Source: an uncultured Acidobacteriota bacterium
GTDB lineage: Bacteria > Acidobacteriota > Thermoanaerobaculia > Multivoradales > UBA5704
Reading direction: 5' to 3'
Assembly: GCA_963700145.1 (NCBI GenBank)
Contig: OY969474.1
Span: forward strand, 1,760,001 to 1,824,000
DNA length: 64,000 bases
Part shown: piece after piece, positions 1 through 13,206 of the stretch
Layout of the letters: the number at the start of each line of letters is the position of its first letter
How positions within the stretch are numbered: position 1 is the first letter of the stretch
The notes under the pieces: model-generated
The model's database searches: none
What the model saw: the letters and a program-made list of their open reading frames with translations, nothing else
Told to the model about the DNA's origin: nothing
Position numbers and translations under genes: made by a program

Positions 1-1957
1 TGAAGGCGGCCTCGGGGCGGATGAAGTAGTTGTCGCCGCCCAGGAAGCCCCCGGCGTACTCGACACCCAGGTTGAAGCGGCGGCCGCGGGTCGGCTCGAA
101 CGGGTTGTCGCGGCTGTCGTAGCTGTAGGCCGGACGCAGCGAGGAGTTGTCGATGGTGACGAAGCGCAGGGCCTGCGGGTCCGGGATCGGGTTGCCGACG
201 TCGTCGAAGAGGCGCTGGGTCTCGTCCTCGAGGACCGACCGCAGGTAGGTGACGCCCGCCTGCTGGAAAAGACCGAGCTGGCGGCCGTAGGTCACCGAGC
301 CGCCGCGGCTGCTGCGCCGGAACTGCTGGTCGCTGGCGACCCGGAAGTCGAGGTCCTGGTCGAAGGCGCGCACGCCGATCGACTGCGGCCGGTCGAGGAA
401 CCAGGGCACGTAGTAGGAGAGGTCGAAGTAGTCGCGGAAGCGGCCGGTCTGGAAGGCCAACCCCACCTGCTCGCCGCGCCCCAGGAAGTTCTTGGTGTTG
501 ATCGCGAACTGGCCGAAGAAGCCGTCGAGCTCGCTCCAGCCGCCGCCGAACTGCAGCTCCGTGCGCTCCTTCTCGGCGCCCTTGAACAGCAGGTGGACCT
601 GCTTGGCCTCGGTGTTCTGGTCGAAGGTGACCGGCTCCTCCTTGTCGAGCTCGAAGTAGCCGAGCTGGTTGATCTTGAAGATCGAGTTGCGCACCGCGCC
701 GATGTTGACGACGCCGCCCTCGTGCAGCCGCAGCTCGCGGCGCAGCACCTTGTCCATGGTGCGGTCGTTGCCCTCGAACTCGATGCGCCCGACCTTGAAC
801 TGCTCGCCCTCGCTGATCCGCACCACCAGGTCGGCGACGTTGCCCGGCTTCTCCACCAGCTCGCCGTCGACGCGGGCGAAGATGTAGCCGGTGTTGTGGT
901 AGGTCTCGGTGATCGCCTTGGTGCCGTCGTCGATCGCCTTCTGGCGCAGCCAGCTCCCCGAGCGGTGCTCGAAGGCGCGCAGCAGCGCCTGGTCGGTGTA
1001 GATCTCGTTGCCCTCGATCGACACCTCGCCGAACTTCCAGCGCTCGCCCTCCTCTATGGGGATGGTGATGAACATGCGGCGTTTTTCGCGAGGCGGCTTA
1101 CCGCCGCCGGGCCGGTCCTCGGGGGCGTTGGGGTTGCTGGCGCGGACGTCGATCTTGGGCTCGCCGATGACCACGTTCTTGTAGCCGGCGCCGCGGTAGA
1201 GGTCCCGCACCTTGTCGAGGTCCTCCTGCAGGCTGGCCGGGTTGTAGATGTCCTTCTTGGTGATGCGCGAGAGGATGCCGCTCTCGTTGGTCTTGCGCAT
1301 CAGGACGCGGAGGCGCGGGCCGGAGAAGACGGAGTTGCCCTCGAAGCCGATGTCGGCGATCCGCACCCGGTCGCCCTCGTCGACCTTGAAGACGACGCGC
1401 TTCTCGGTCGGGGTCAGCTCCTCGATCGTGTAGTCGGCGGTGGCGAAGCGGAAGCCCTTGTCGGCGTAGGCCTCCTCGATCATCTCCTTGACGCGGTACA
1501 GCTCGCCGAGGTTCAGCGGATCGCCTTCCTTCAGGCGGATGCCCTTGGCGGAGATGTCGTCGAGCAGGTCGTTGCGCGAGATGCGCTTCATCCCCTGGTA
1601 GTCCACCGACCGGATGGTCGGCCGCTCGACGACCGTGATCGTCAGGCGCACCCCCCCTTCCGGGGTGGGCTGGGCGTCCACCTGGATGTCGTCGATCAGG
1701 TTGCGGTCCCAGAGCGCCTTGACGTTCTGGTCCAGGCGCACCGGGTCGAGCGCCTGGAGGCGCTCGAGACCCAGGTAGTAGAGGAGGGTCTCCTCGGAGA
1801 GGGCACGCAGCCCCTGGAACTCGATCGCGTCGATCCGCTTGCCGGCCAGCGGCTCCTGGGCGAGGAGGCCCGGGGCGGGGAGCAGAAGGGCGGCGGAGAG
1901 TCCCCAGACCGCGAGGCGACGAACAAGGGACCAGCTCGGGAGTACGCGGGTCGTCAC
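1..1957 (-). CDS. bamA: Outer membrane protein assembly factor BamA (3' end runs off the window)
   Basis: Manual minus-strand translation from GTG 1957 (SD-like GAGGTG upstream) gives a signal peptide, POTRA-like repeats (IDAIEFQGLRALSEETLLYYL) and the barrel start GGGWSELDGFFGQFAINTKNFLGRGE. Missing from the ORF track because it has no stop in the window. Confidence 0.93.
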   Translation of the reverse strand, partial: MTTRVLPSWSLVRRLAVWGLSAALLLPAPGLLAQEPLAGKRIDAIEFQGLRALSEETLLYYLGLERLQALDPVRLDQNVKALWDRNLIDDIQVDAQPTPEGGVRLTITVVERPTIRSVDYQGMKRISRNDLLDDISAKGIRLKEGDPLNLGELYRVKEMIEEAYADKGFRFATADYTIEELTPTEKRVVFKVDEGDRVRIADIGFEGNSVFSGPRLRVLMRKTNESGILSRITKKDIYNPASLQEDLDKVRDLYRGAGYKNVVIGEPKIDVRASNPNAPEDRPGGGKPPREKRRMFITIPIEEGERWKFGEVSIEGNEIYTDQALLRAFEHRSGSWLRQKAIDDGTKAITETYHNTGYIFARVDGELVEKPGNVADLVVRISEGEQFKVGRIEFEGNDRTMDKVLRRELRLHEGGVVNIGAVRNSIFKINQLGYFELDKEEPVTFDQNTEAKQVHLLFKGAEKERTELQFGGGWSELDGFFGQFAINTKNFLGRGEQVGLAFQTGRFRDYFDLSYYVPWFLDRPQSIGVRAFDQDLDFRVASDQQFRRSSRGGSVTYGRQLGLFQQAGVTYLRSVLEDETQRLFDDVGNPIPDPQALRFVTIDNSSLRPAYSYDSRDNPFEPTRGRRFNLGVEYAGGFLGGDNYFIRPEAAF

Positions 1958-2114
1958 GGCTTTCACCTCATGGAGTCGGTTTTGCCCCCGGCCAGACCCG
2001 GCCGCCGGGGGCTCCTGGAATGTCGGGGGGAAGCTTAGCAGGGTTGGGTGCTCGGGGCGTCGTTCGCCCTATACTGGAAATCACTAAGAAACCATCCTGG
2101 CCCGGCTGCGAGAC

Positions 2115-2732
2115 ATGGACGTCGAGAACACCACGGGTTTGGTGCGAGAGGCCCTCGCCGGCGATCCGGCCGCCTTGAACCGGCTGGTGGCCTGCCTGAC
2201 ACCCGTCGTCCAGGCCCGCGTGGCGAGGACCCTGCTCCGCCAGTCGCACCTCGGCGGCGGCCGCAACGTTCGCCAGGAGGTCGAAGACCTGACCCAGGAG
2301 ATCTTCCTTTCGCTCTTCGCCAACGGCGGGCGCGTGCTGCGCCGCTGGCAGCGCGAGCGCGGTCTGTCGCTGCACAACTTCGTCGGGCTGGTGAGCGAGC
2401 GTCTGGTGGCGTCGGCCCTGCGCAGCGGCAAGCGGAACCCGTGGAAAGAGGAGCCCACGCCGACGGAGAACCTCGACGCGGCGGCGCTCGACAACGGACC
2501 GGAAGAGGTCACGGCGAGCCGCGAGGAGCTGCGCCTCCTGCTCGACGGGCTGCGGGAGCAGTTGAGCCCGCTGGGCCGCCAGCTCTTCGAGCTCCTCTTC
2601 GTCCAGGAGCTGTCGGTGCCGGAGACGATGGCCGCCAGCGGCTTGTCCGCCGACGCGATCTACGCCTGGCGGAGCCGTCTGCGCCGCCTCGCTCGCGAGC
2701 TGCTGGCCGAGCTGTCAGGAAAGAGTACGTAG
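2115..2732 (+). CDS. ECF-type RNA polymerase sigma factor
   Basis: 205 aa. Region 2 VEDLTQEIFLSLF and region 4 LSVPETMAASGLSADAIYAWRSRLRR; N-terminal ALAGDPAALNRLV is typical of ECF sigmas. Confidence 0.9.
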   Translation: MDVENTTGLVREALAGDPAALNRLVACLTPVVQARVARTLLRQSHLGGGRNVRQEVEDLTQEIFLSLFANGGRVLRRWQRERGLSLHNFVGLVSERLVASALRSGKRNPWKEEPTPTENLDAAALDNGPEEVTASREELRLLLDGLREQLSPLGRQLFELLFVQELSVPETMAASGLSADAIYAWRSRLRRLARELLAELSGKST

Positions 2733-2742
2733 GCGCGAAAGA
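2713..2742 (+). promoter_or_regulatory. Putative ECF promoter copy 1 (TGTCAG-N17-CGAAAGA), overlapping the sigma stop codon
   Basis: TGTCAGGAAAGAGTACGTAGGCGCGAAAGACC, 19 nt upstream of ATG 2762; same spacing as copies at 6125 and 7853. Confidence 0.7.
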
Positions 2743-2761
2743 CCAGGAAGGATGGAGCAGG

Positions 2762-3538
2762 ATGAGCGAGGACCGGCTATTGCGCGATCTAGGGCACCTG
2801 GCGCGGGAGGAGAGCGAGGCCGAGCAGAGACGCCTCGACGAGCGCTGGGATCGGCTGGCCGCCGGGACGCTGAGCGCGGAGGAAGAGGCGGAGCTGCGCG
2901 CCCTCGCCGAAGCTTCACCCGAAGCCCGCCGGGCGTTTGAAGCCTTCCGGCCGCTCGGCGCCGACTTCCAGGCGCGCGTGGTGGAGGCGATCCGCGCGCA
3001 GGAGCAGGCCGGTAAGTCGGCGAAGCTCTTGCCCTGGCGACAGCACGCTCCCCGTGTCGCCGCCTGGGGCACCGCGGCGGCCGCGGCCGCCGCCTCTCTG
3101 ATGATGCTCCTGCGCCCGCTGGCGCCGCTGCCCGGCTATGCGCTGGCCGAGATCAGCGGCGGCTCCCGCGCGCTGCGGGGGGAGGCGATGGAGGTGCAGG
3201 AGTTCGCGCCGGGCGACGACTTCCAGGTGGTCCTCCGCCCGGAGACCCAGGTCGCGCGGGCGAGGTCCCTGACGACGCAGGCCTTCCTGCTCCGCGGCGC
3301 GGAGCTGCGCGACCTGACGGTGCGGAGCCACGTCGAGCCCAGCGGCGCGGTCAAGCTGGAAGGCTCGCTCGACGACGATCTCCCACCCGGGACCTGGACC
3401 CTCTGGGCGGTCGTCGGCCGGCGGGGCGAGCTGCCGGACCCCGAGGCGCTGCGGTCCCTGGCCGCGCGATCGACGGTCCGGGAACGAGACTGGGTGGCGG
3501 TCCGGACGACCGTCCGGGTCCGTCCCCGGGCACCCTAG
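2762..3538 (+). CDS. Putative membrane-anchored anti-sigma factor
   Basis: ATG 2762 with GGAG SD, inside track ORF 2048..3538. Helical acidic N-terminus (WDRLAAGTLSAEEEAEL), one hydrophobic segment (VAAWGTAAAAAAASLMMLL) and a beta-rich C-terminal domain; directly downstream of the ECF sigma. Confidence 0.7.
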   Translation: MSEDRLLRDLGHLAREESEAEQRRLDERWDRLAAGTLSAEEEAELRALAEASPEARRAFEAFRPLGADFQARVVEAIRAQEQAGKSAKLLPWRQHAPRVAAWGTAAAAAAASLMMLLRPLAPLPGYALAEISGGSRALRGEAMEVQEFAPGDDFQVVLRPETQVARARSLTTQAFLLRGAELRDLTVRSHVEPSGAVKLEGSLDDDLPPGTWTLWAVVGRRGELPDPEALRSLAARSTVRERDWVAVRTTVRVRPRAP

Positions 3539-3540
3539 CC

Positions 3541-6096
3541 GTGCCGCCGCTTCGCTGCCGCAGCGTCTTCTTCCTCCTCTTCGCGCTCGGCACGGCCTGT
3601 GCCTCCCCGCCAAGCTCGCCTCCGCCGGAGGTGGAGTACGCGGGCTGCGCAGCCGTGCTCGTGCCGGGGCCGGTCTGCGTCCTGGGACCGGAACGGGAGC
3701 TCCGGCTCTGGGTCGGCGCTCCGCCGGAGGCGCGGATCGAGCTCCGAGCCGACGGCGGGCCGCTCGACGCCGCGGCAGAGGCCGTTCAGGAGGGGCAGCG
3801 GTTCGCCCTCACCCTGCCCTCCGGGGTGAAGAGCCTGGAAGTGATCGTCGCGGCCGAGGAGGGGCGGACGACGTGGTCCCTGCCCCTCGTGGAGAGGAAG
3901 GGCGAGGGGCCCGGAGGGCCGCCGGCGGGGCAAGGCACGTCCCGCGACCTGCGGCGCCAGGTCGCAGAGACGCTGATGCGCGTGCACGGCGAGGTCCAGG
4001 ACCGCAAGCTCGCCGCCGCCCGCGAGCTGCTGCACGCCATTCGCCTCCCGCCCAAGGCGCCGGCGGAATCCCGCTATCAAGTGGCCTACTACCGCGGGCT
4101 GCTCGCGGCCAAGAACGGGGACTACCGCGCGGCGCTAGCCGAAGTGCAAGACGCCGTGGTCATCGCCAAGCGGGTAAAGCTGGAGCGCGAGCATCGCCTG
4201 GCGGAAGAAGAGCTGGCCCTGCTCCTGCTCGGAGTAGGCCGGTCGCGCGAGGCCGCCGAGCTCCTCGACCGCCTGCGCCGGACGCCGCATTCCGCGAACC
4301 CTTGCGAGGAAGCCAACCTCCTCAGCAACCAGGCCTGGGCGACGCTGCTGGCTCGCGAGGCCGGCGAGGGCCTGGACGATCCCACGCTTCTCTTCGAGCG
4401 CGCGCTGGCGACGTACGCGACCTGCGAGAGCGCCACGCCCGCGCACGGGGCCAACGTCCTGCTCAATTTGGCGCTGGCTCACCTGCAGGAAGACCGCGTG
4501 GCGCAAGCCAAGGAAGCCCTGGCCCGGGCGCACCGGCTCGAGCCTCATCCGTCCGTCCCTCTCAGGCTCTGGCGGCTCGATCTGGAGGCGCGGATCGCCT
4601 TGCGCGAGGGGCGGCCCGCCGCGGCGCTGGCTCGGTTCGACGAGCTGGCGGAGCTCGCTCTCGAGACCAGCTCCGCCGACGGCCGGCTGCGGGCCGCGTT
4701 CGGGCAGGCGCAGTCGCACGAGGCCCTCGGGGATCGCGCCGCGGCCCTGGAGACGCTCGGCCGGGCCGAGGCCCTGCTGGACGAGCAGAGCCTCCAGATC
4801 CCCGTGCAGGAAGGGCGGGAGACCTTCCTGGCGACGCGCCAGGCTCTGGTGAGCCTGCACGTCGCGATCCTCCTCGACCAGGGCCGCCAGGCCCGGGCCC
4901 TGGACCTGGCGCGCCACGCCCGGTCGCGGGTGCTGCGGCAGCTGGAGCGCGGCGACCGGCTGGCGAGCCTGACGCCGGACCGGCGGGCCCGCTGGGAGCG
5001 GCTTCTTCTGAGCTACAAGGAGAGGCGCACGGCCCTGGAGGAGCGAGCGAGAGACGACTGGAAGCTGCCCGGCGACCAGCTCCGCCGGGAGCAGGCCGCG
5101 AGAAAGGCGGGGGCGGAGACCGCGAAGAGGGATCTGGACCAAGCCTTCCTGATGCTCGAAGACCCGGGAGCGCCACTGGAAGGGAGACCGCCGCTGCCGC
5201 GACCCGGAGAGCTGGTCCTCGCCTATCAATCGCTGCCTGACGGCTGGGTCGGCTTCGCGGCCAATGGAGAGACCGTCGCGGCGCACCGCTTCGAGCTGCC
5301 GCCGGAGGTCCTGTCCCGGCCCGAGGAGCTTTCCCGGCGGCTGCTCCTGCCGTTCAGCGGTTCGATCCGGCAGGCCCGGCGGATCCGCATCCTGCCCAGC
5401 GGCCCGCTGCGGGGCGTCGATTTCCATGCGCTGCCGTTCGACGGGGACGTCCTCCTGGCGAGCGCTCCCGTCGTCTATGGGCTGGACCTTCCCGTGTCCG
5501 CGGGCCCCGCGGAGCCTTCCGGGCGGCGCGCCCTCCTGGTGGCCGACCCCCGGGGCGACCTGGCGGGCGCGCTCGCGGAGGCGCGAGCGGTCCGCAAGGT
5601 CCTGGCATCCGGCTCACAGCCCTGGACCACCACGGAGCTGGAGCACGCGGCGGCTTCGGCGGACGCCGTGCGCGGCCGCCTGGCCGCCGCCGATCTCCTC
5701 CACTACGCCGGCCACGGCACCTTCTCGGGGTTCGGCGGCTGGGAGAGCGGCCTGCTCCTGGCCGAGGAGACCCAGTTGACCCTCGGCGACCTCCTGGCGC
5801 TCCAGCGGGTGCCGGCCTGGGTCGTCCTTTCCGCCTGTGACACCGGCCGGTCGTCCGCCGAGACCCCCGTCGAGAGCCTCGGCCTGGCCCACGCCTTCCT
5901 CCTCGCCGGCTCGCGGGCCGTCGTCGCCTCCACCCGGCCTGCCGACGACCGCACGGTGCCGGCGTTCTTCACCGACCTGTACCGGCAGTGGAGGCTGGAG
6001 CCGGACCTCGCCGTGGCGCTGCAGCGCGCCCAGCTCGCCTGGCGGCAGCGGAGTCACGGAGCGGACTGGGCGGGCTTCCGCCTGTTCGAGCCCTGA
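3541..6096 (+). CDS. TPR-CHAT (caspase-like) protease with lipoprotein signal
   Basis: 851 aa. Catalytic dyad motifs LHYAGHG and VLSACDTG, CHAT C-terminus DWAGFRL, Ala/Leu-rich TPR-like helices and N-terminal FFLLFALGTA-C lipobox. Confidence 0.9.
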   Translation: MPPLRCRSVFFLLFALGTACASPPSSPPPEVEYAGCAAVLVPGPVCVLGPERELRLWVGAPPEARIELRADGGPLDAAAEAVQEGQRFALTLPSGVKSLEVIVAAEEGRTTWSLPLVERKGEGPGGPPAGQGTSRDLRRQVAETLMRVHGEVQDRKLAAARELLHAIRLPPKAPAESRYQVAYYRGLLAAKNGDYRAALAEVQDAVVIAKRVKLEREHRLAEEELALLLLGVGRSREAAELLDRLRRTPHSANPCEEANLLSNQAWATLLAREAGEGLDDPTLLFERALATYATCESATPAHGANVLLNLALAHLQEDRVAQAKEALARAHRLEPHPSVPLRLWRLDLEARIALREGRPAAALARFDELAELALETSSADGRLRAAFGQAQSHEALGDRAAALETLGRAEALLDEQSLQIPVQEGRETFLATRQALVSLHVAILLDQGRQARALDLARHARSRVLRQLERGDRLASLTPDRRARWERLLLSYKERRTALEERARDDWKLPGDQLRREQAARKAGAETAKRDLDQAFLMLEDPGAPLEGRPPLPRPGELVLAYQSLPDGWVGFAANGETVAAHRFELPPEVLSRPEELSRRLLLPFSGSIRQARRIRILPSGPLRGVDFHALPFDGDVLLASAPVVYGLDLPVSAGPAEPSGRRALLVADPRGDLAGALAEARAVRKVLASGSQPWTTTELEHAAASADAVRGRLAAADLLHYAGHGTFSGFGGWESGLLLAEETQLTLGDLLALQRVPAWVVLSACDTGRSSAETPVESLGLAHAFLLAGSRAVVASTRPADDRTVPAFFTDLYRQWRLEPDLAVALQRAQLAWRQRSHGADWAGFRLFEP

Positions 6097-6124
6097 GCGC
6101 CCGGCCCGCCACGCCGCCTGCCTC

Positions 6125-6154
6125 TGTCAGAAACCGCGCCCCGGCGGCGAAGGA
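6125..6154 (+). promoter_or_regulatory. Putative ECF promoter copy 2 (TGTCAG-N17-CGAAGGA)
   Basis: TGTCAGAAACCGCGCCCCGGCGGCGAAGGATC in the intergenic gap upstream of the S8 peptidase. Confidence 0.72.
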
Positions 6155-6191
6155 TCATTGCGTCTGCGTCAAAAACCAAGGAGATCGGACC

Positions 6192-7763
6192 ATGAGGACC
6201 AAGCAACTGTTCTGGATCGCTCCCCTGTTCGCGATCGCGATGAGCTCCTGCACGACGCTGCGGCCACAGCCGATGGACACCGCCCAGGCCTGCGCCAGCT
6301 GGCGGTGGATCGGGATCAGCCGGCCCGAAGCCAAGTGCCCGGAGGTCCCGGGCTGGACCGTGCAACCACTGTTTACCTCGATTCGGGAGAAGCCGGCGGA
6401 CGACTGCGGGAAGAAAGACGACAAGGACGACAAGAAGGTGCTCGCCTTCGCCCCCGCCCCCGGGCTGATCCGGGAGCTCAATCGTTTTTGCGTGTACGAG
6501 GCCTCGCCGCAGTCGCTTGGGGGCGCTCCGCTCCCGCCGCCCGCGAGCGCCGAGCTGGTGCGGATCGATCGGGACTGCGCGGCCCTGTCGGCCTCCGGCG
6601 AGAACCATATGAGGTGGCCCTGGGGCAACTTCTACCGGCGCCTCCTCAACCAGGCCGGCATCCCGGGGGAAACCTTCACGATCGACAACCCGTTCGGCGT
6701 GCGGCTGGCCTTTCTGGACACCGAGCCGACGCGCGAAGAGATCCCCCGGCGACAGGGCCGCTCGCCGCACGGCTACGCGCTCGCCCACATCGCCCGCCAC
6801 CTGGTGTGCCCGAGAGGGAGCTGTGCGGCGCGGATCACCACCCAGCTCGCGCTCCCGATCGTCGAGTTCGACCCGCAGAGCCGGGAGCTCACCAAGGTCG
6901 ACACCGAGCGTGGGGGCTTTATCGGCATGCAGAGCACTCTCGCCCAGGCCATCTGGAGCGAAGTGGACGCCTGGCAGAGGGACCGGCGGCAGGAGCATCT
7001 CGTTCTCAACCTGTCGCTGGCCTGGGACGGCGAGCTCTTCAGCGGCCTCGACGAGCAGCAGGTCGAGGAGATGAAGGCGGGAACGCAGGCCGTTTATCGT
7101 GCCCTGCAGTACGCGTCGGACTTCGACGTCCTCGTGGTTGCCGCCGCGGGCAATATCAAGGGCGAGCCCTGCGCCAACTTCGGGCCTCTCTTGCCGGCTG
7201 CCTGGGAAGGGCGATGTGAGAAGGGAGCGCCACGCCTCTACGCCGTAGGCGGGGTGGATGCGAAGGGTCATCCCCTGGTCAACGCCCGCCCGGGCGGCAT
7301 GCCGCGGCGGGTCGCGTACGCCGACGACGCCGTGGCGGCATGCCCCAGCCGCAGGGGACGCACGGCAAGGCTCACCGGCAGCTCGGTCGCGGCGGCCGTC
7401 GTCGCGTCGATCGCTTCCGTCGTGTGGGCCGCCTACCCCGATCGCAGCTCCGGCGAGATCATGGACATGCTCGATGCGAGCGGCGAGGAGCTGCCCATGG
7501 CGGCGGACTTCTGGCGCAGGAGCGCCTCCGCATCTCCTGCCCATCCCAGGGTCCACAAGCTGTCGCTCTGCAACGCGCTCGCGACGGCCTGCGACGAATA
7601 CGGGTGCGCGTCCAAGCCCTCGTGCGCCACGCATGCGCCCGAGCCTCCCGATCCCTGGCGCCCTCTCTACACCAGGACCTGGCGGCGCGGCTCCTGTCAG
7701 CCGTGGCTCTACCCCCAGCCCGAGGTCGATCCTTGTCCGGTCTGCCCGCCGTGGAAGCCTTGA
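6192..7763 (+). CDS. S8 (subtilisin-like) serine peptidase, Cys-rich lipoprotein
   Basis: ATG 6192 with AAGGAG SD; lipobox AMSS-C; triad-like motifs LAFLDT (Asp), PHGYALA (His), VAAAGN (oxyanion Asn) and TGSSVAAAVVA (Ser). Confidence 0.8.
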   Translation: MRTKQLFWIAPLFAIAMSSCTTLRPQPMDTAQACASWRWIGISRPEAKCPEVPGWTVQPLFTSIREKPADDCGKKDDKDDKKVLAFAPAPGLIRELNRFCVYEASPQSLGGAPLPPPASAELVRIDRDCAALSASGENHMRWPWGNFYRRLLNQAGIPGETFTIDNPFGVRLAFLDTEPTREEIPRRQGRSPHGYALAHIARHLVCPRGSCAARITTQLALPIVEFDPQSRELTKVDTERGGFIGMQSTLAQAIWSEVDAWQRDRRQEHLVLNLSLAWDGELFSGLDEQQVEEMKAGTQAVYRALQYASDFDVLVVAAAGNIKGEPCANFGPLLPAAWEGRCEKGAPRLYAVGGVDAKGHPLVNARPGGMPRRVAYADDAVAACPSRRGRTARLTGSSVAAAVVASIASVVWAAYPDRSSGEIMDMLDASGEELPMAADFWRRSASASPAHPRVHKLSLCNALATACDEYGCASKPSCATHAPEPPDPWRPLYTRTWRRGSCQPWLYPQPEVDPCPVCPPWKP

Positions 7764-7852
7764 CCACGGCACCGACGAGCCTCCTTCTCTAACACTGCGC
7801 CGGCTGTGCGTCTCCCGCCAGCCGGCGCGTTTCCTCTTCCGACTGCCTCGGT

Positions 7853-7882
7853 TGTCAGAAATCCGCCGCCGGCCGCGAAGGA
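7853..7882 (+). promoter_or_regulatory. Putative ECF promoter copy 3 (TGTCAG-N17-CGAAGGA)
   Basis: TGTCAGAAATCCGCCGCCGGCCGCGAAGGACC, followed by SD GGGAGG and ATG 7907. Confidence 0.72.
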
Positions 7883-7906
7883 CCTCCACAAAGGGAGGAT
7901 TTCGCC

Positions 7907-10153
7907 ATGGCCATCACGATGCAGGGCAATTGGACCGTCTCCGTGAAGAGCAAGAGCGCCGCGTTTCCGCAGCGCTTCGTCATCGCGGGGGCAAGCTCCG
8001 GCAACGGGACGTACGCCGGGGACACTTCGACGCCGCCGGTCACGGTCGTCGGCGCCAACTGGACGATCCGCGTCGAGCACAACCCGGGCTCCGGGTTCAT
8101 CGATTCGGCGGAGCAGATCAAGTTTCCGACCACCACGCTGACCGAGTACCGCTTCGACATCCAGTCGAACGACAGTGGCGCCGACCAGGACTTCAACGAC
8201 CTGATCCTGACCTGCAGGACGCCGCGCACCGACACCGACTTCGTCCTCTTCGGCAACGTGAGCTGGTACAAGGGCTGCTCCTGGAACCCCTGTTTCCCGC
8301 GCTGGCTAGTCTTCGACACGTTGCCGGCGGTCCGCGAGGCGCTCAAGAACCCGCTCTTCCGCGAACCGCTCGAGAAGCTCTATCCGGACCGGCTGTACGA
8401 GGTGCCGCCGCGCATCGGGCCCATTCCCGATCCGCCTCCGTTCCGGCCGCTGGTGGTGCCGCTCGAGGGCCTCACGGCCCTGCCGCCCAAGCAGGCGCAG
8501 CTCATCAAGCTGCGGGCCCTGGACCTCGAAGGGCCCGAGCTCAAGACCGCCGCGAAGCGGAACGTCCAGGCGGCCGCGGACCGGCCCGCCGACGACGAGC
8601 TCGAAGAGAGGTCGATCCTCTCGGCGCGGGCGGTCGAGGTGTCCCGGCCGGCGCCGATCGCCGACTTCAAGCTCGAGCGCATCGAGATCGGCCGCCTACA
8701 GGATCAGTTCCGCTTGCTCTGCCAGACCGGGCCTCTCGCCGGCACGGTGCTGCGGTTTCTCGAGTACGACCGCACGGCGGCCGAGCTGGCGGGCGGACCG
8801 TATACCGGCACCGGCACGCGGGAAACGCTCGGGATCTGCGTCACCGACCGCAACGGCAACTACGTCTTCCGCTTCCGTCGCCCGACCGCGAGCTTCCTCA
8901 ACGAGGCCAACGTGGACGTGGCGGCCGGCGAGGACGAGGTGGTGCAGAGCATGCCGGACGTCATCGTCCAGGTCGTCGACACCGTCCACCCCTCCGGCTT
9001 CTCCTACGAGAGCGCCCCCTACTGGAACGTGCCGCTCTTCAAGCGGATCAACATCTGCGCGCCGCTCGTCGGCCGTCTCCCGACGGCGTGTCAGGGGCAC
9101 AACGCCATCCAGGCGATCGGCAACATCTTCATCGGCGCTCCGACCGCTCCCCCGCCGCCGGGACAGCCGCCCGGCTACGGCCCGCGGGTCGGCTTCAGCA
9201 ACTTCCTCGGCGGCACCGGCAGGATCACCGCCAAGAACACCCTCCCGAACGTGCCGCCGGCGCGCTGCGCCGCCTGGGCCGGCCGGCTCGACCTCTTCGC
9301 CTGCTTCATCGACCAGCCGGCGGTGAAGCACTACACGATCCGCTACCGGCGGCACGGCACCGCCGCCTGGAGCAGCTTCTTCCAGGAGAAGTACACCCAT
9401 CCCAAGATCGCCAACATCAGCCTGCCCGGCTACTCGGGCGACCCCGTGGGGCCCTTCGACGTGCCGCTCCACGTCGACGGCGGCCCGGCTTCACCGACCA
9501 AGGCCTACCTCAACATCGAGAGCGACAACGCCTGGGTCCTCACCCACCGCGACCGCAAGGCGGTGATCTCGTCGTGGCTCTATGCCGCGACGCCCGGCTC
9601 GGTCGACTTCCGCATCGAAGGGTACGACTCGGCGGGCAACAAGGTGTCCGGCGCGGACGACATGGTGACTCTCTACATCGACAACACCGGCCCCGACTTC
9701 ACGATCTCCGAGGTGACGATGGCCAGCACCCCGGGCGGCGACTGCGCGCTGTTCACCGTGCCCGCCGCGGCGCCCGCGACCCCGCTGACGGTGAAGTTCA
9801 AGGCGAACCAGCTGCAGGGATTCATGCACGACTACGGCTTGAGCGTGCGGAAGGGGAACATCGGCGGCTTCGGCATCACCGGGAGCCCCGCCGGGCTCAT
9901 CAGCGGCAGCTACACGCACGGCGACGATCTCGCCTGCAGCCAGTTCGTCGGGACGTTGGATACCGGCGGCACACTGGGCCTGGTAACCGTGGACCTGGCG
10001 CCGGCGAGCGGCCGCTGGCTGGAGCCCGGGCAGCCCTTCTGCACCTTCGCGGTCAACCTCGGGTGCAGCACGCGGGTCACCAACGGCTACAACTCGGCGG
10101 TGGCCGGTTACGGACCCGTCCAGTACTTCCTGGGGATCCAGGCCGGTTCGTGA
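7907..10153 (+). CDS. Hypothetical beta-rich multidomain protein with N-terminal PA-IIL/LecB-like Ca-binding motif
   Basis: 748 aa, strong SD, coding-like codon use. SNDSGADQDFNDLIL resembles LecB SEDGTDNDYNDAVV; no signal peptide seen. Confidence 0.75.
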   Translation: MAITMQGNWTVSVKSKSAAFPQRFVIAGASSGNGTYAGDTSTPPVTVVGANWTIRVEHNPGSGFIDSAEQIKFPTTTLTEYRFDIQSNDSGADQDFNDLILTCRTPRTDTDFVLFGNVSWYKGCSWNPCFPRWLVFDTLPAVREALKNPLFREPLEKLYPDRLYEVPPRIGPIPDPPPFRPLVVPLEGLTALPPKQAQLIKLRALDLEGPELKTAAKRNVQAAADRPADDELEERSILSARAVEVSRPAPIADFKLERIEIGRLQDQFRLLCQTGPLAGTVLRFLEYDRTAAELAGGPYTGTGTRETLGICVTDRNGNYVFRFRRPTASFLNEANVDVAAGEDEVVQSMPDVIVQVVDTVHPSGFSYESAPYWNVPLFKRINICAPLVGRLPTACQGHNAIQAIGNIFIGAPTAPPPPGQPPGYGPRVGFSNFLGGTGRITAKNTLPNVPPARCAAWAGRLDLFACFIDQPAVKHYTIRYRRHGTAAWSSFFQEKYTHPKIANISLPGYSGDPVGPFDVPLHVDGGPASPTKAYLNIESDNAWVLTHRDRKAVISSWLYAATPGSVDFRIEGYDSAGNKVSGADDMVTLYIDNTGPDFTISEVTMASTPGGDCALFTVPAAAPATPLTVKFKANQLQGFMHDYGLSVRKGNIGGFGITGSPAGLISGSYTHGDDLACSQFVGTLDTGGTLGLVTVDLAPASGRWLEPGQPFCTFAVNLGCSTRVTNGYNSAVAGYGPVQYFLGIQAGS

Positions 10154-10554
10154 GCGTGTACGTGCTGCTGGCGGGGGCTCTGGGGGTCTGGCGCCTGACC
10201 CACTTGCTGTGGGGCGAGGACGGTCCGTGGGACCTCCTCGCCCGCCTCCGCCGGCGGGCGGGAGACGGGTTCTGGGGCAACCTGCTCGACTGCTTCTTCT
10301 GCTGCAGCGTGTGGGTTGCCCTGCCGTTCGCCCTGCTTCTCGGGAGCCGCTGGCAGGACCGGCTGCTCCTCTGGCCGGCGCTCTCGGCGGGAGCCATCCT
10401 GCTTCAGGGGCTGGCGTTCCCGCGGACGCTCGAGACTCGCGCCAGCGCGCCGGCACTCCCGCCGGCGCCCTTTACCGAAGACGAGGAACCCGACGATGTC
10501 CTGCTGCGGCGACAAGAGACACCAGTTCCAGGTCTTCCACACGCTTCGACCTGA
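10150..10554 (+). CDS. DUF1360-like small membrane protein with CxxC
   Basis: GTG overlaps the upstream TGA (GTGA); WRLTHLLWGEDGPW and LLDCFFCCSVWVA with hydrophobic helices. This is the C-terminal part of track ORF 7258..10554. Confidence 0.72.
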   Translation: MSVYVLLAGALGVWRLTHLLWGEDGPWDLLARLRRRAGDGFWGNLLDCFFCCSVWVALPFALLLGSRWQDRLLLWPALSAGAILLQGLAFPRTLETRASAPALPPAPFTEDEEPDDVLLRRQETPVPGLPHAST

Positions 10555-10750
10555 CCCCGAGCCGCCGGCCCCGACGGCCGTTCCGCCGGTCTCGCGGGTG
10601 CTCTTCGAATATGTGGGGAGGACCGGGCTCACGGCCACCGGCCCGCTCACCGGCCAGCACTACCGCTTCGAGGGGCCCGGCATGCGCGTCGAGGTGGACG
10701 GCCGCGACGCGCCCTCGCTCGCGGCGGTCCCCAACCTGCGGCGGGTCTGA
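10496..10750 (+). CDS. Small hypothetical protein with N-terminal MSCCG motif (84 aa)
   Basis: ATG 10496 with GAGGA SD; MSCCGDKR...FEYVGRTGLTATGPLTGQHYRF...VDGRDAPSLAAVPNLRRV. Confidence 0.7.
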   Translation: MSCCGDKRHQFQVFHTLRPDPEPPAPTAVPPVSRVLFEYVGRTGLTATGPLTGQHYRFEGPGMRVEVDGRDAPSLAAVPNLRRV

Positions 10751-10761
10751 GGGAGACGGAC

Positions 10762-13206
<2,445 letters not shown>

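Follow-up and report, generated by a model that had tools for sequence, protein, structure and literature searches.

Within a 64,000-nucleotide (nt) stretch of the genome of an uncultured Acidobacteriota bacterium (GenBank assembly GCA_963700145.1, contig OY969474.1, positions 1,760,001 to 1,824,000; the window below), four adjacent genes encode a divergent sigma factor of the extracytoplasmic function (ECF) type (G1), a single-pass membrane protein resembling an anti-sigma factor (G2), an exported TPR-CHAT lipoprotein (G3), and a divergent S8 subtilase-like lipoprotein (G4). We lean towards reading these genes as a relative of the DdvS/DdvA trans-envelope switch that is divided over two proteins ('split') and has a subtilase added. 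DdvS and DdvA are an ECF sigma factor and a transmembrane anti-sigma factor of Myxococcus xanthus (PMC11506125, PMC6061681), and the accessible text of PMC11506125 confirms PDB entry 8ROT as DdvA-DdvS. DdvA consists of a zinc anti-sigma domain, one membrane helix, and a periplasmic TPR-CHAT part of about 900 residues (PMC11506125).

Gene order and conservation

All seven co-oriented open reading frames (ORFs), G1 to G7, were confirmed, and they lie on the strand opposite to the flanking BamA and ClpC-like genes (Table 1). The G+C content of the window is about 70%, which crowds ORF lists with false frames, and the junctions were therefore read individually. ORF reading and family matches agree in every part with the initial annotation, which had described seven co-oriented genes with a sigma factor, an anti-sigma-like protein with a single membrane segment, a TPR-CHAT protein and an S8 lipoprotein.

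The order G1-G2-G3-G4 is the same in all 44 loci fetched from 41 related genomes, so the four kinds of protein that the initial annotation had joined into one system do co-occur outside the window. These loci were drawn from places with G2 homologues in scans of the family and the phylum, and were picked by score and by the length of the contig. G2 homologues are found in 59 of 92 genomes of the same family and in 4 of 401 genomes of a thin phylum sample. G4 is truncated at a contig end in one of the 44 loci, and G3 is broken across frames in three (L067, L075, and L091). Chance adjacency of G1 to G4 is ruled out by this synteny. The first four genes are a conserved module, and G5, G6, and G7 lie outside it. 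The initial annotation had counted this three-gene operon as the effector part of the system. That part of its proposal fell away, as G5 is found in none of the 44 related loci and elsewhere occurs with G6 and G7 in the company of no sigma, CHAT, or S8 gene.

G2 and G3 as one polypeptide in relatives

In the window G2 and G3 are two separate genes (G2 stop at 3538, G3 start at 3541) with a gap of 2 nt, and in most relatives the two genes overlap. A sister-family genome has one ORF of 1196 amino acids that consists of a G2-like N-domain, membrane helix, and sandwich followed by a G3-like protein. It has no lipoprotein signal, and is flanked by a sigma gene and an S8 gene. Two additional fused CHAT-bearing proteins were found in a search for longer relatives of G2. 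A scan with the fused protein returned 1021 proteins at E <= 1e-30. Among the best 150 of these, which are cluster representatives, 14 align from the N-domain to the end of CHAT and 6 more do so partly, while about 130 are split forms that begin where G3 begins. The fused proteins retain the signature of the G2 N-domain, [FYW]-E-A-F-R-P-L. One fused relative (P0222) has HxxxCxxC, which we take to be the zinc anti-sigma signature, where the others carry the G2-type N-domain.

Since relatives make both parts as one polypeptide, G2 and G3 appear to be functionally tied. The fusions are the strongest evidence here that the two proteins act together, and they suggest that the N-domain of G2 occupies the position of the anti-sigma domain.

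The sigma factor and the anti-sigma-like protein

All matches of G1 to ECF models of Pfam and NCBIfam are below their cut-offs: 34.6 bits for TIGR02937 (cut-off 42.9), E = 0.026 for Sigma70_r2, and E = 6e-13 for the ShbA model. A profile made from 26 G1 orthologues matches the solved ECF sigma factor 9isn_F with E = 4.5e-7 over residues 8-195, nearly the full length. PDB searches with the single sequences of G1, G2, and G3 gave nothing meaningful. In two loci (L075 2719-4176, P0122; L077 2870-4384, P0123), the sigma and anti-sigma frames are merged into one ORF of 485-504 amino acids through a frame change near sigma residue 160, which could reflect faulty assembly or decay of the copy.

The sigma gene seems to have a promoter of its own kind. 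In 32 of 44 loci, TATA[AC]T occurs in the 80 nt that precede the sigma gene, where the background rate is 0.003 per 80 nt. Because this conserved TATAAT-like box precedes G1, the sigma factor is probably made constitutively, and the anti-sigma/CHAT pair, the subtilase, and the cargo would be sigma-dependent. A simple sigma-70 promoter scan found no full promoter, and a terminator scan found 4 terminator-like sites where 3.1 are expected.

The structural model of G2 (predicted local distance difference test, pLDDT, 84.5) has four N-terminal helices (residues 3-86), a membrane helix (103-116), and a confidently modelled beta-sandwich of the immunoglobulin-like (Ig-like) type (126-253). Lys and Arg residues read from the sequence before the membrane helix suggest that the N-domain is cytoplasmic. 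This domain is the best conserved part of the protein. In the outer part, Arg139 is invariant and Gly140 nearly so; both belong to the first loop outside the membrane, a region of lower model confidence. Gene order, topology, and the helical N-domain point to G2 as the putative inhibitor that would hold G1 at the inner membrane. Pfam searches with 25 G2 orthologues returned no anti-sigma family (one orthologue matched DUF4880 at E = 0.04), and the only match of the G2 profile was a low-complexity stretch in an unrelated protein. An extra ORF just upstream of the sigma gene in two loci (L087 2115-2426; L094 15792-15472, minus strand) resembles the outer sandwich of G2 only (residues 150-256, about 31% identity).

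Two protease-type lipoproteins

G3 matches the Pfam CHAT family with 120.9 bits, and there are weak TPR matches as well. Its signal peptide is of the lipoprotein type and ends in ...LGTAC, indicating export. The model (pLDDT 92.6, predicted template modelling score 0.90) shows a beta-sandwich (30-118), a TPR superhelix (137-537), and the CHAT domain (557-851). The catalytic dyad and the lipobox that the initial annotation had called intact are indeed so: His725 is found in 42 of 45 orthologues and Cys766 in 43 of 45, and the exceptions come from loci whose G3 ORF is broken.

With Foldseek, DdvA has the best TM-score against the G3 model (8rot_A, TM 0.50, root-mean-square deviation (rmsd) 7.7) and Csx29 the best E-value. 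VIA-align gives Csx29 a Z of 30.7 (rmsd 11.6, 572 residues aligned), separase 26.6, and DdvA 26.5 (rmsd 6.2, 595 aligned). When a G3 sequence profile is compared with the PDB, DdvA is the best match (8rot_B, E = 1.8e-10), and Csx29 follows at about 0.02. The CHAT family is much expanded in this genome, where at least 15 ORFs have a CHAT domain that scores above the Pfam cut-off, most of them in open frames of 1000-1400 amino acids. One (G000:C1:1746555-1747361) is located about 13 kb before the window, and some of them may be further anti-sigma/CHAT systems.

G4 is more divergent. It matches Peptidase_S8 of Pfam with 29.6 bits (cut-off 21.8) over profile positions 106-265 only, which is the second half containing Asn and Ser, and it matches a mycosin model below that model's cut-off (E = 1.8e-17). 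A PHROGs match is also to a protease. The signal peptide is again of the lipoprotein type (...AMSSC). The putative Asp176 and His193 are present in 45 of 45 orthologues, and Asn321 and Ser398 in 44 of 45. The Pfam alignment does not reach the first half of the domain, so Asp176 and His193, just 17 residues apart, were placed by motif and not by structure.

A bipartite promoter-like motif

The sequence TGTCAGAAA-N14-CGAAGGA is found in the window in two exact copies and one copy with two mismatches (Table 1). The three matches compare with 0.02 expected, and none of 100 shuffles reached three. In the whole 5.46-Mb genome, the exact motif occurs only at the two copies of the window.

A strict pattern, GTCAG[AG]A-N14-GCGAA (written GTCAGRA-N14-GCGAA below), and a looser one were scanned over the 44 loci (770,698 nt). 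The strict motif is found 101 times on the strand of the module, three times on the other strand, and never in reversed-sequence controls. It is upstream of G2 in 30 of 44 loci (34 with the loose pattern), where it mostly ends 22 nt before the start codon. It lies within the G3-G4 gap in 34 loci (loose, 38), and downstream of G4 there is at least one copy in 23 (loose, 28), with up to four copies per locus. Upstream of G1 the strict motif is found in none of the 44. The claim that one repeated bipartite motif precedes the genes downstream of the sigma gene is thus borne out by the three copies of the window and by the same three kinds of position in relatives. Both blocks and their spacing are kept; the sequence of the spacer and the distance to the start codons vary.

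In 30 loci the motif is located wholly inside the sigma ORF, and all 30 use TCA for the Ser that it encodes. TCA makes up 4.6% of the 5658 Ser codons of these genes, and the residues that follow the motif Ser differ between loci (GK, ES, GN, EN, EP, and others). It follows that the constraint acts at the DNA level rather than on the encoded residues. In its behaviour the motif resembles a dedicated promoter, and it is the candidate for recognition by G1.

The strict motif has five further matches elsewhere in the genome. Two are good (G000:C1:3181889-3181914 and 1702081-1702106, both on the minus strand): one is about 68 nt before a gene for a 589-residue vWA-domain protein (L123 3590-5359, minus strand), and a short ORF encoding a signal peptide begins 60 nt after the other. 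Because a backwards control gave two matches, the outside matches may be chance and are not counted as regulon. In three loci (L090, L091, and L096), a copy upstream of the sigma gene lies on the opposite strand and points to divergent upstream genes, which suggests that the regulon can extend to both sides.

Comparison with known systems

The initial annotation took the type III-E system of Csx29 and Csx30, found with clustered regularly interspaced short palindromic repeats (CRISPR), as its precedent. Craspase (Csx29/Csx30/CASP-sigma) does share the TPR-CHAT fold and the theme of a sigma factor freed by a protease, but it is cytoplasmic, RNA-activated, and bound to Cas7-11, as given in the available part of PMC10028731. 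The present locus has no cas genes; its protease is exported, and its sigma inhibitor is a protein of the membrane. The sequence similarity of G3 to Csx29 is also weaker than that to DdvA (see above), and the link to type III-E CRISPR is the shared fold only. The envelope-located DdvS/DdvA pair (PMC11506125) is closer.

As in DdvS/DdvA, the sigma gene here is followed by the gene of a single-pass anti-sigma-like protein. Both systems have a separase/craspase-type TPR-CHAT part with a His-Cys dyad, periplasmic in DdvA and with export predicted from the signal peptide in G3, and DdvA is both the best profile match in the PDB and a top structural match of G3. The fused relatives of G2 and G3 are DdvA-like polypeptides. 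DdvS drives several promoters across a neighbouring gene island, and G1 may do the same here. The proposed mechanism, CHAT as site-1 protease and then RseP, is shared too. In the DdvS/DdvA report, loss of TPR-CHAT turns DdvA into a substrate of RseP, and signal-induced self-cleavage by CHAT is proposed as the site-1 step (PMC11506125). A CRISPR-free TPR-CHAT/anti-sigma system of the envelope, such as the initial annotation inferred, is not new in kind, because that paper already proposes site-1 cleavage by CHAT.

The differences are as follows. Anti-sigma and TPR-CHAT are separate proteins here, TPR-CHAT being a lipoprotein. G2 lacks a zinc (CHCC) site in its N-domain and has an additional Ig-like domain on the outer side. 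The module also includes a conserved S8 lipoprotein. G1 stands apart from DdvS and is not behind its own motif, whereas ddvS-ddvA is autoregulated (PMC6061681). The cargo is neither CRISPR nor a cyclic-oligonucleotide-based anti-phage signalling system (CBASS): PADLOC gave no match for 15 of 16 proteins, and a weak match to BovA on the CHAT domain. The words 'split', 'lipoprotein', 'subtilisin', and subtilase do not occur in the accessible part of PMC11506125, and none of the papers found on ECF/CHAT anti-sigma factors or on periplasmic TPR-CHAT with sigma factors describes a split system.

A sigma/subtilase/CHAT neighbourhood is already catalogued as ECF54. In the sections available of the two reports that treat it, ECF54 members are found near carboxypeptidase-like, subtilase, and CHAT proteins and proteolytic control without an anti-sigma factor is suggested (PMC8999054), and the group is 100% actinobacterial, has no anti-sigma factor, and carries a carboxypeptidase-regulatory-like protein at +1 with subtilase and CHAT/TPR proteins nearby (PMC7826278). 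By gene content the two look alike: an ECF sigma factor stands beside a +1 protein with a beta-sandwich (modelled, in the case of G2), a subtilase, and a CHAT protein with TPRs, and proteolytic control is proposed for both. The ECF54 promoter is GTATCAG (-35) and CTCC (-10) (PMC7826278). Its -35 element shares TCAG with GTCAG here, but CTCC differs from GCGAA, as do the gene order, the restriction to actinobacteria, and the description without an anti-sigma factor. The +1 protein G2 is a beta-sandwich by model only and does not match CarboxypepD_reg; that Pfam domain occurs in cargo of a relative from the same genus.

Proposed mechanism and alternatives

For a split DdvS/DdvA-like switch, the following order of events can be proposed. 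The sigma gene would be read from its housekeeping-type promoter, so that sigma is always made, and the helical N-domain of G2 would hold it at the inner membrane. G2 and G3 are probably co-transcribed and translationally coupled, and the outer Ig-like domain of G2 would work with the exported G3, the two being one polypeptide in relatives. An envelope or extracellular signal, sensed by the TPR-CHAT protein, would then remove or cut the outer part of G2, the His-Cys dyad of CHAT serving as the putative site-1 protease. The CHAT domain of G3 may be what cuts G2, though we hold this step with more doubt than confidence. Next a site-2 protease would free the sigma factor, a role that may fall to an RseP-like M50 protein whose gene is present in the genome (218.6 bits). 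Free sigma would read GTCAGRA-N14-GCGAA and in this way raise the expression of G2-G3 (as negative feedback), the S8 lipoprotein G4, and lineage-specific cargo, here G5-G6-G7.

Several points weigh against this account. G2 itself matches no anti-sigma family of Pfam or NCBIfam. Foldseek finds only generic Ig-like folds for its model, and does not resolve the helical N-domain against known anti-sigma domains. This domain has no Cys, no conserved Cys or His column, and no zinc ligands. In the comparison of the G1 profile with the PDB, the sigma chain of 8ROT (DdvS) is absent even at E = 10. The motif GTCAGRA-N14-GCGAA is also different from the DdvS promoter, GTAA-n16-CGT (PMC6061681). For DdvA itself, cleavage by CHAT is not demonstrated in the accessible text of PMC11506125, and mutation of the dyad is without reported effect in unstimulated cells. 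Residue +2 of the lipoprotein G3 is Ala, so that G3 might anchor in the outer membrane, away from G2. Lastly, G3 and G4 are both behind the putative sigma-dependent motif, and possibly are outputs instead of controllers.

The last point is the starting point of an alternative that we consider rather unlikely, namely that G3 and G4 are mere outputs, exported proteases for feeding, predation, or cargo maturation, while G2 senses alone through its Ig-like domain. It suits the cargo of relatives, which holds more hydrolases (S8, papain C1, trypsin-like, and class 3 lipase), and the ECF survey PMC7826278, in its accessible part, states that context alone cannot separate regulators from targets. However, the one-polypeptide form of anti-sigma and TPR-CHAT in at least 14 cluster representatives speaks against a mere output, as do the tight G2-G3 junction and the example of DdvA, an anti-sigma factor that bears this very domain.

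Somewhat less probable again is that site-1 cutting of G2 is the task of the subtilase G4, or that G4 activates G3, with TPR-CHAT mainly a sensor or shield. G4 being itself sigma-dependent, this would give an all-or-none switch with positive feedback. G4 is present in 44 of 44 loci with its putative triad kept, has its own copy of the motif, still follows the fused gene in the fused relative, and is predicted to be exported as a lipoprotein to the compartment of the outer domain of G2. The CHAT site of DdvA, moreover, looks incomplete and resting (PMC11506125, section 8). On the other hand, conservation is equally strict for the CHAT dyad and the S8 triad, G4 was not seen fused to G2, nothing ties G4 physically to G2, and the available text of PMC11506125 reports no need for a subtilase in DdvS/DdvA.

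An ECF54-style arrangement, in which the proteases degrade the sigma factor directly and no anti-sigma factor is involved, has been proposed in a review for ECF54 with similar gene content (PMC8999054; PMC7826278, in the parts available), but is very improbable here, where both proteases have lipoprotein signal peptides and so are outside the cytoplasm, sigma is inside, and a conserved anti-sigma-like membrane protein is present.

Table 1. Features of the module, its flanks, and its cargo (window coordinates unless a locus is named)
Feature	Position	Strand	Basis or remark
BamA gene	2..1966	-	flank of the cassette
TATACT box, housekeeping-type -10 element	2070..2075	+	39 nt before the G1 start codon
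G1, divergent ECF-type sigma factor, 205 amino acids	2115..2732	+	sub-threshold ECF matches, orthologue profile
Motif copy 1 (2 mismatches)	2713..2742	+	overlaps the sigma stop codon, 20 nt before G2; candidate sigma-dependent G2-G3 promoter
G2, single-pass membrane anti-sigma-like protein, 258 amino acids	2762..3538	+	predicted structure, conservation, fusions
G3, exported TPR-CHAT lipoprotein, 851 amino acids	3541..6096	+	Pfam, model, dyad conservation
Motif copy 2 (exact)	6125..6154	+	38 nt before G4
G4, divergent S8 subtilase-like lipoprotein, 523 amino acids	6192..7763	+	Pfam, residue conservation
Motif copy 3 (exact)	7853..7882	+	25 nt before G5
G5, 748-residue protein of a widespread uncharacterised family, variable cargo	7907..10153	+	homologue survey
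G6, small membrane protein, weak DUF1360 match	10150..10554	+	start overlaps the G5 stop
G7, 84-residue protein	10496..10750	+	overlaps the G6 end; ORF reading, homologue survey
ClpC-like gene	10762..13206	-	other flank of the cassette
G5-G6-G7 cassette copies	window 7907-10750; L006 10001-12802; L007 823-3551; L008 10001-12738

Variable cargo downstream of the module

The cargo that relatives have behind motif copies beyond G4 falls into at least nine unrelated families, besides singletons. Many of these proteins are 600-780 amino acids long and have no signal peptide or Pfam match. Besides the S8, papain C1, trypsin-like, and class 3 lipase enzymes mentioned above, the cargo includes DUF6345, transthyretin-like, and carboxypeptidase-regulatory-like proteins. 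In locus L060, from the same genus, the module is found at the same BamA/ClpC site (L060 7277-13161, corresponding to 6192-10762 of the window). There G5 and most of G6 are gone, and G7 and the last 29 codons of G6 are retained at 87-90% identity. In their place are a carboxypeptidase-regulatory-like protein of 153 amino acids and a protein of 695 amino acids without a known family, each behind a motif copy. The different cargo at this same site and across relatives indicates that the output of the switch turns over quickly.

Across 61 genomes G5 has three matches, counting its own, and the other two are weak and partial. It has no match in Pfam, PADLOC, PHROGs, or the PDB, and no sequence similarity to the other cargo proteins. 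Its family is nevertheless large: among 8000 proteins scored, 685 match at E <= 0.001, with about 50-75% identity, and all are unnamed. They come from Acidobacteriota, Gemmatimonadota, Chloroflexota, Armatimonadota, and other phyla. In 38 sequences there are 78 invariant columns, 11 of them Cys, and a DxDFNDL motif near the N-terminus. The family has no signal peptide and no relative in the PDB. Pfam searches with 38 members gave no match reaching E = 0.01. The initial annotation called the operon 'lectin-like', and the matches that might speak for this are weak (Y_Y_Y in 4 of 38 and DUF4114 in 2 of 38, E about 0.03-0.04), so that it stays a lead.

G6 matches PF07098 (DUF1360) below the cut-off (E = 6e-4) and has only a weak match of unknown function in PHROGs. 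G7 has no match in Pfam or NCBIfam. G6 and/or G7 are present in 14 of the 44 related loci. Among 14 G5 loci in metagenome-assembled genomes of other phyla, G6 and G7 follow G5 in three. In these 14 loci, tblastn found no sigma, CHAT, or S8 gene, the neighbours scanned are unrelated housekeeping genes, and the motif is not upstream of G5. G5-G6-G7 looks like a mobile three-gene cassette that occurs across several phyla and consists of a protein of 720-770 amino acids, a DUF1360-like membrane protein, and a protein of about 80 amino acids (Table 1).

A second cargo family of about 770 amino acids (N-terminal ...ERANFKALVL.NPN...) is found at L064 6960-9263 (minus strand) and in seven other loci. 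It also precedes DUF1360-like and small genes, and in the protein atlas it is widespread and unnamed in Acidobacteriota, Bacteroidota, and archaea. A large uncharacterised protein followed by a DUF1360-like and a small protein may be a general type of cassette.

Implications

A natural two-protein version of the switch offers a cleaner test of the CHAT step, since each of the two, protease and substrate, can be produced and mutated on its own before they are mixed, with the fused relatives as controls. The clear motif is a ready reporter and marks the regulon in each genome, where the same switch would drive very different and mostly uncharacterised cargo. ECF54-type neighbourhoods, thought to be without an anti-sigma factor, may hide one in the +1 beta-sandwich protein.

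A further idea, which we regard as a long shot, is that the split makes the location of the free TPR-CHAT lipoprotein the signal. In the normal state, sorting would keep G3 off the inner membrane. If the biogenesis of lipoproteins or of the outer membrane were damaged, or an invader made contact, G3 would encounter the Ig-like domain of G2, cut the Arg139-Gly140 loop, and free the sigma factor. The G5 family and eight or more further cargo families would then form a new class of effectors for envelope defence or competition. If this were true, the sigma factor would turn on a fast-changing island of large uncharacterised proteins.

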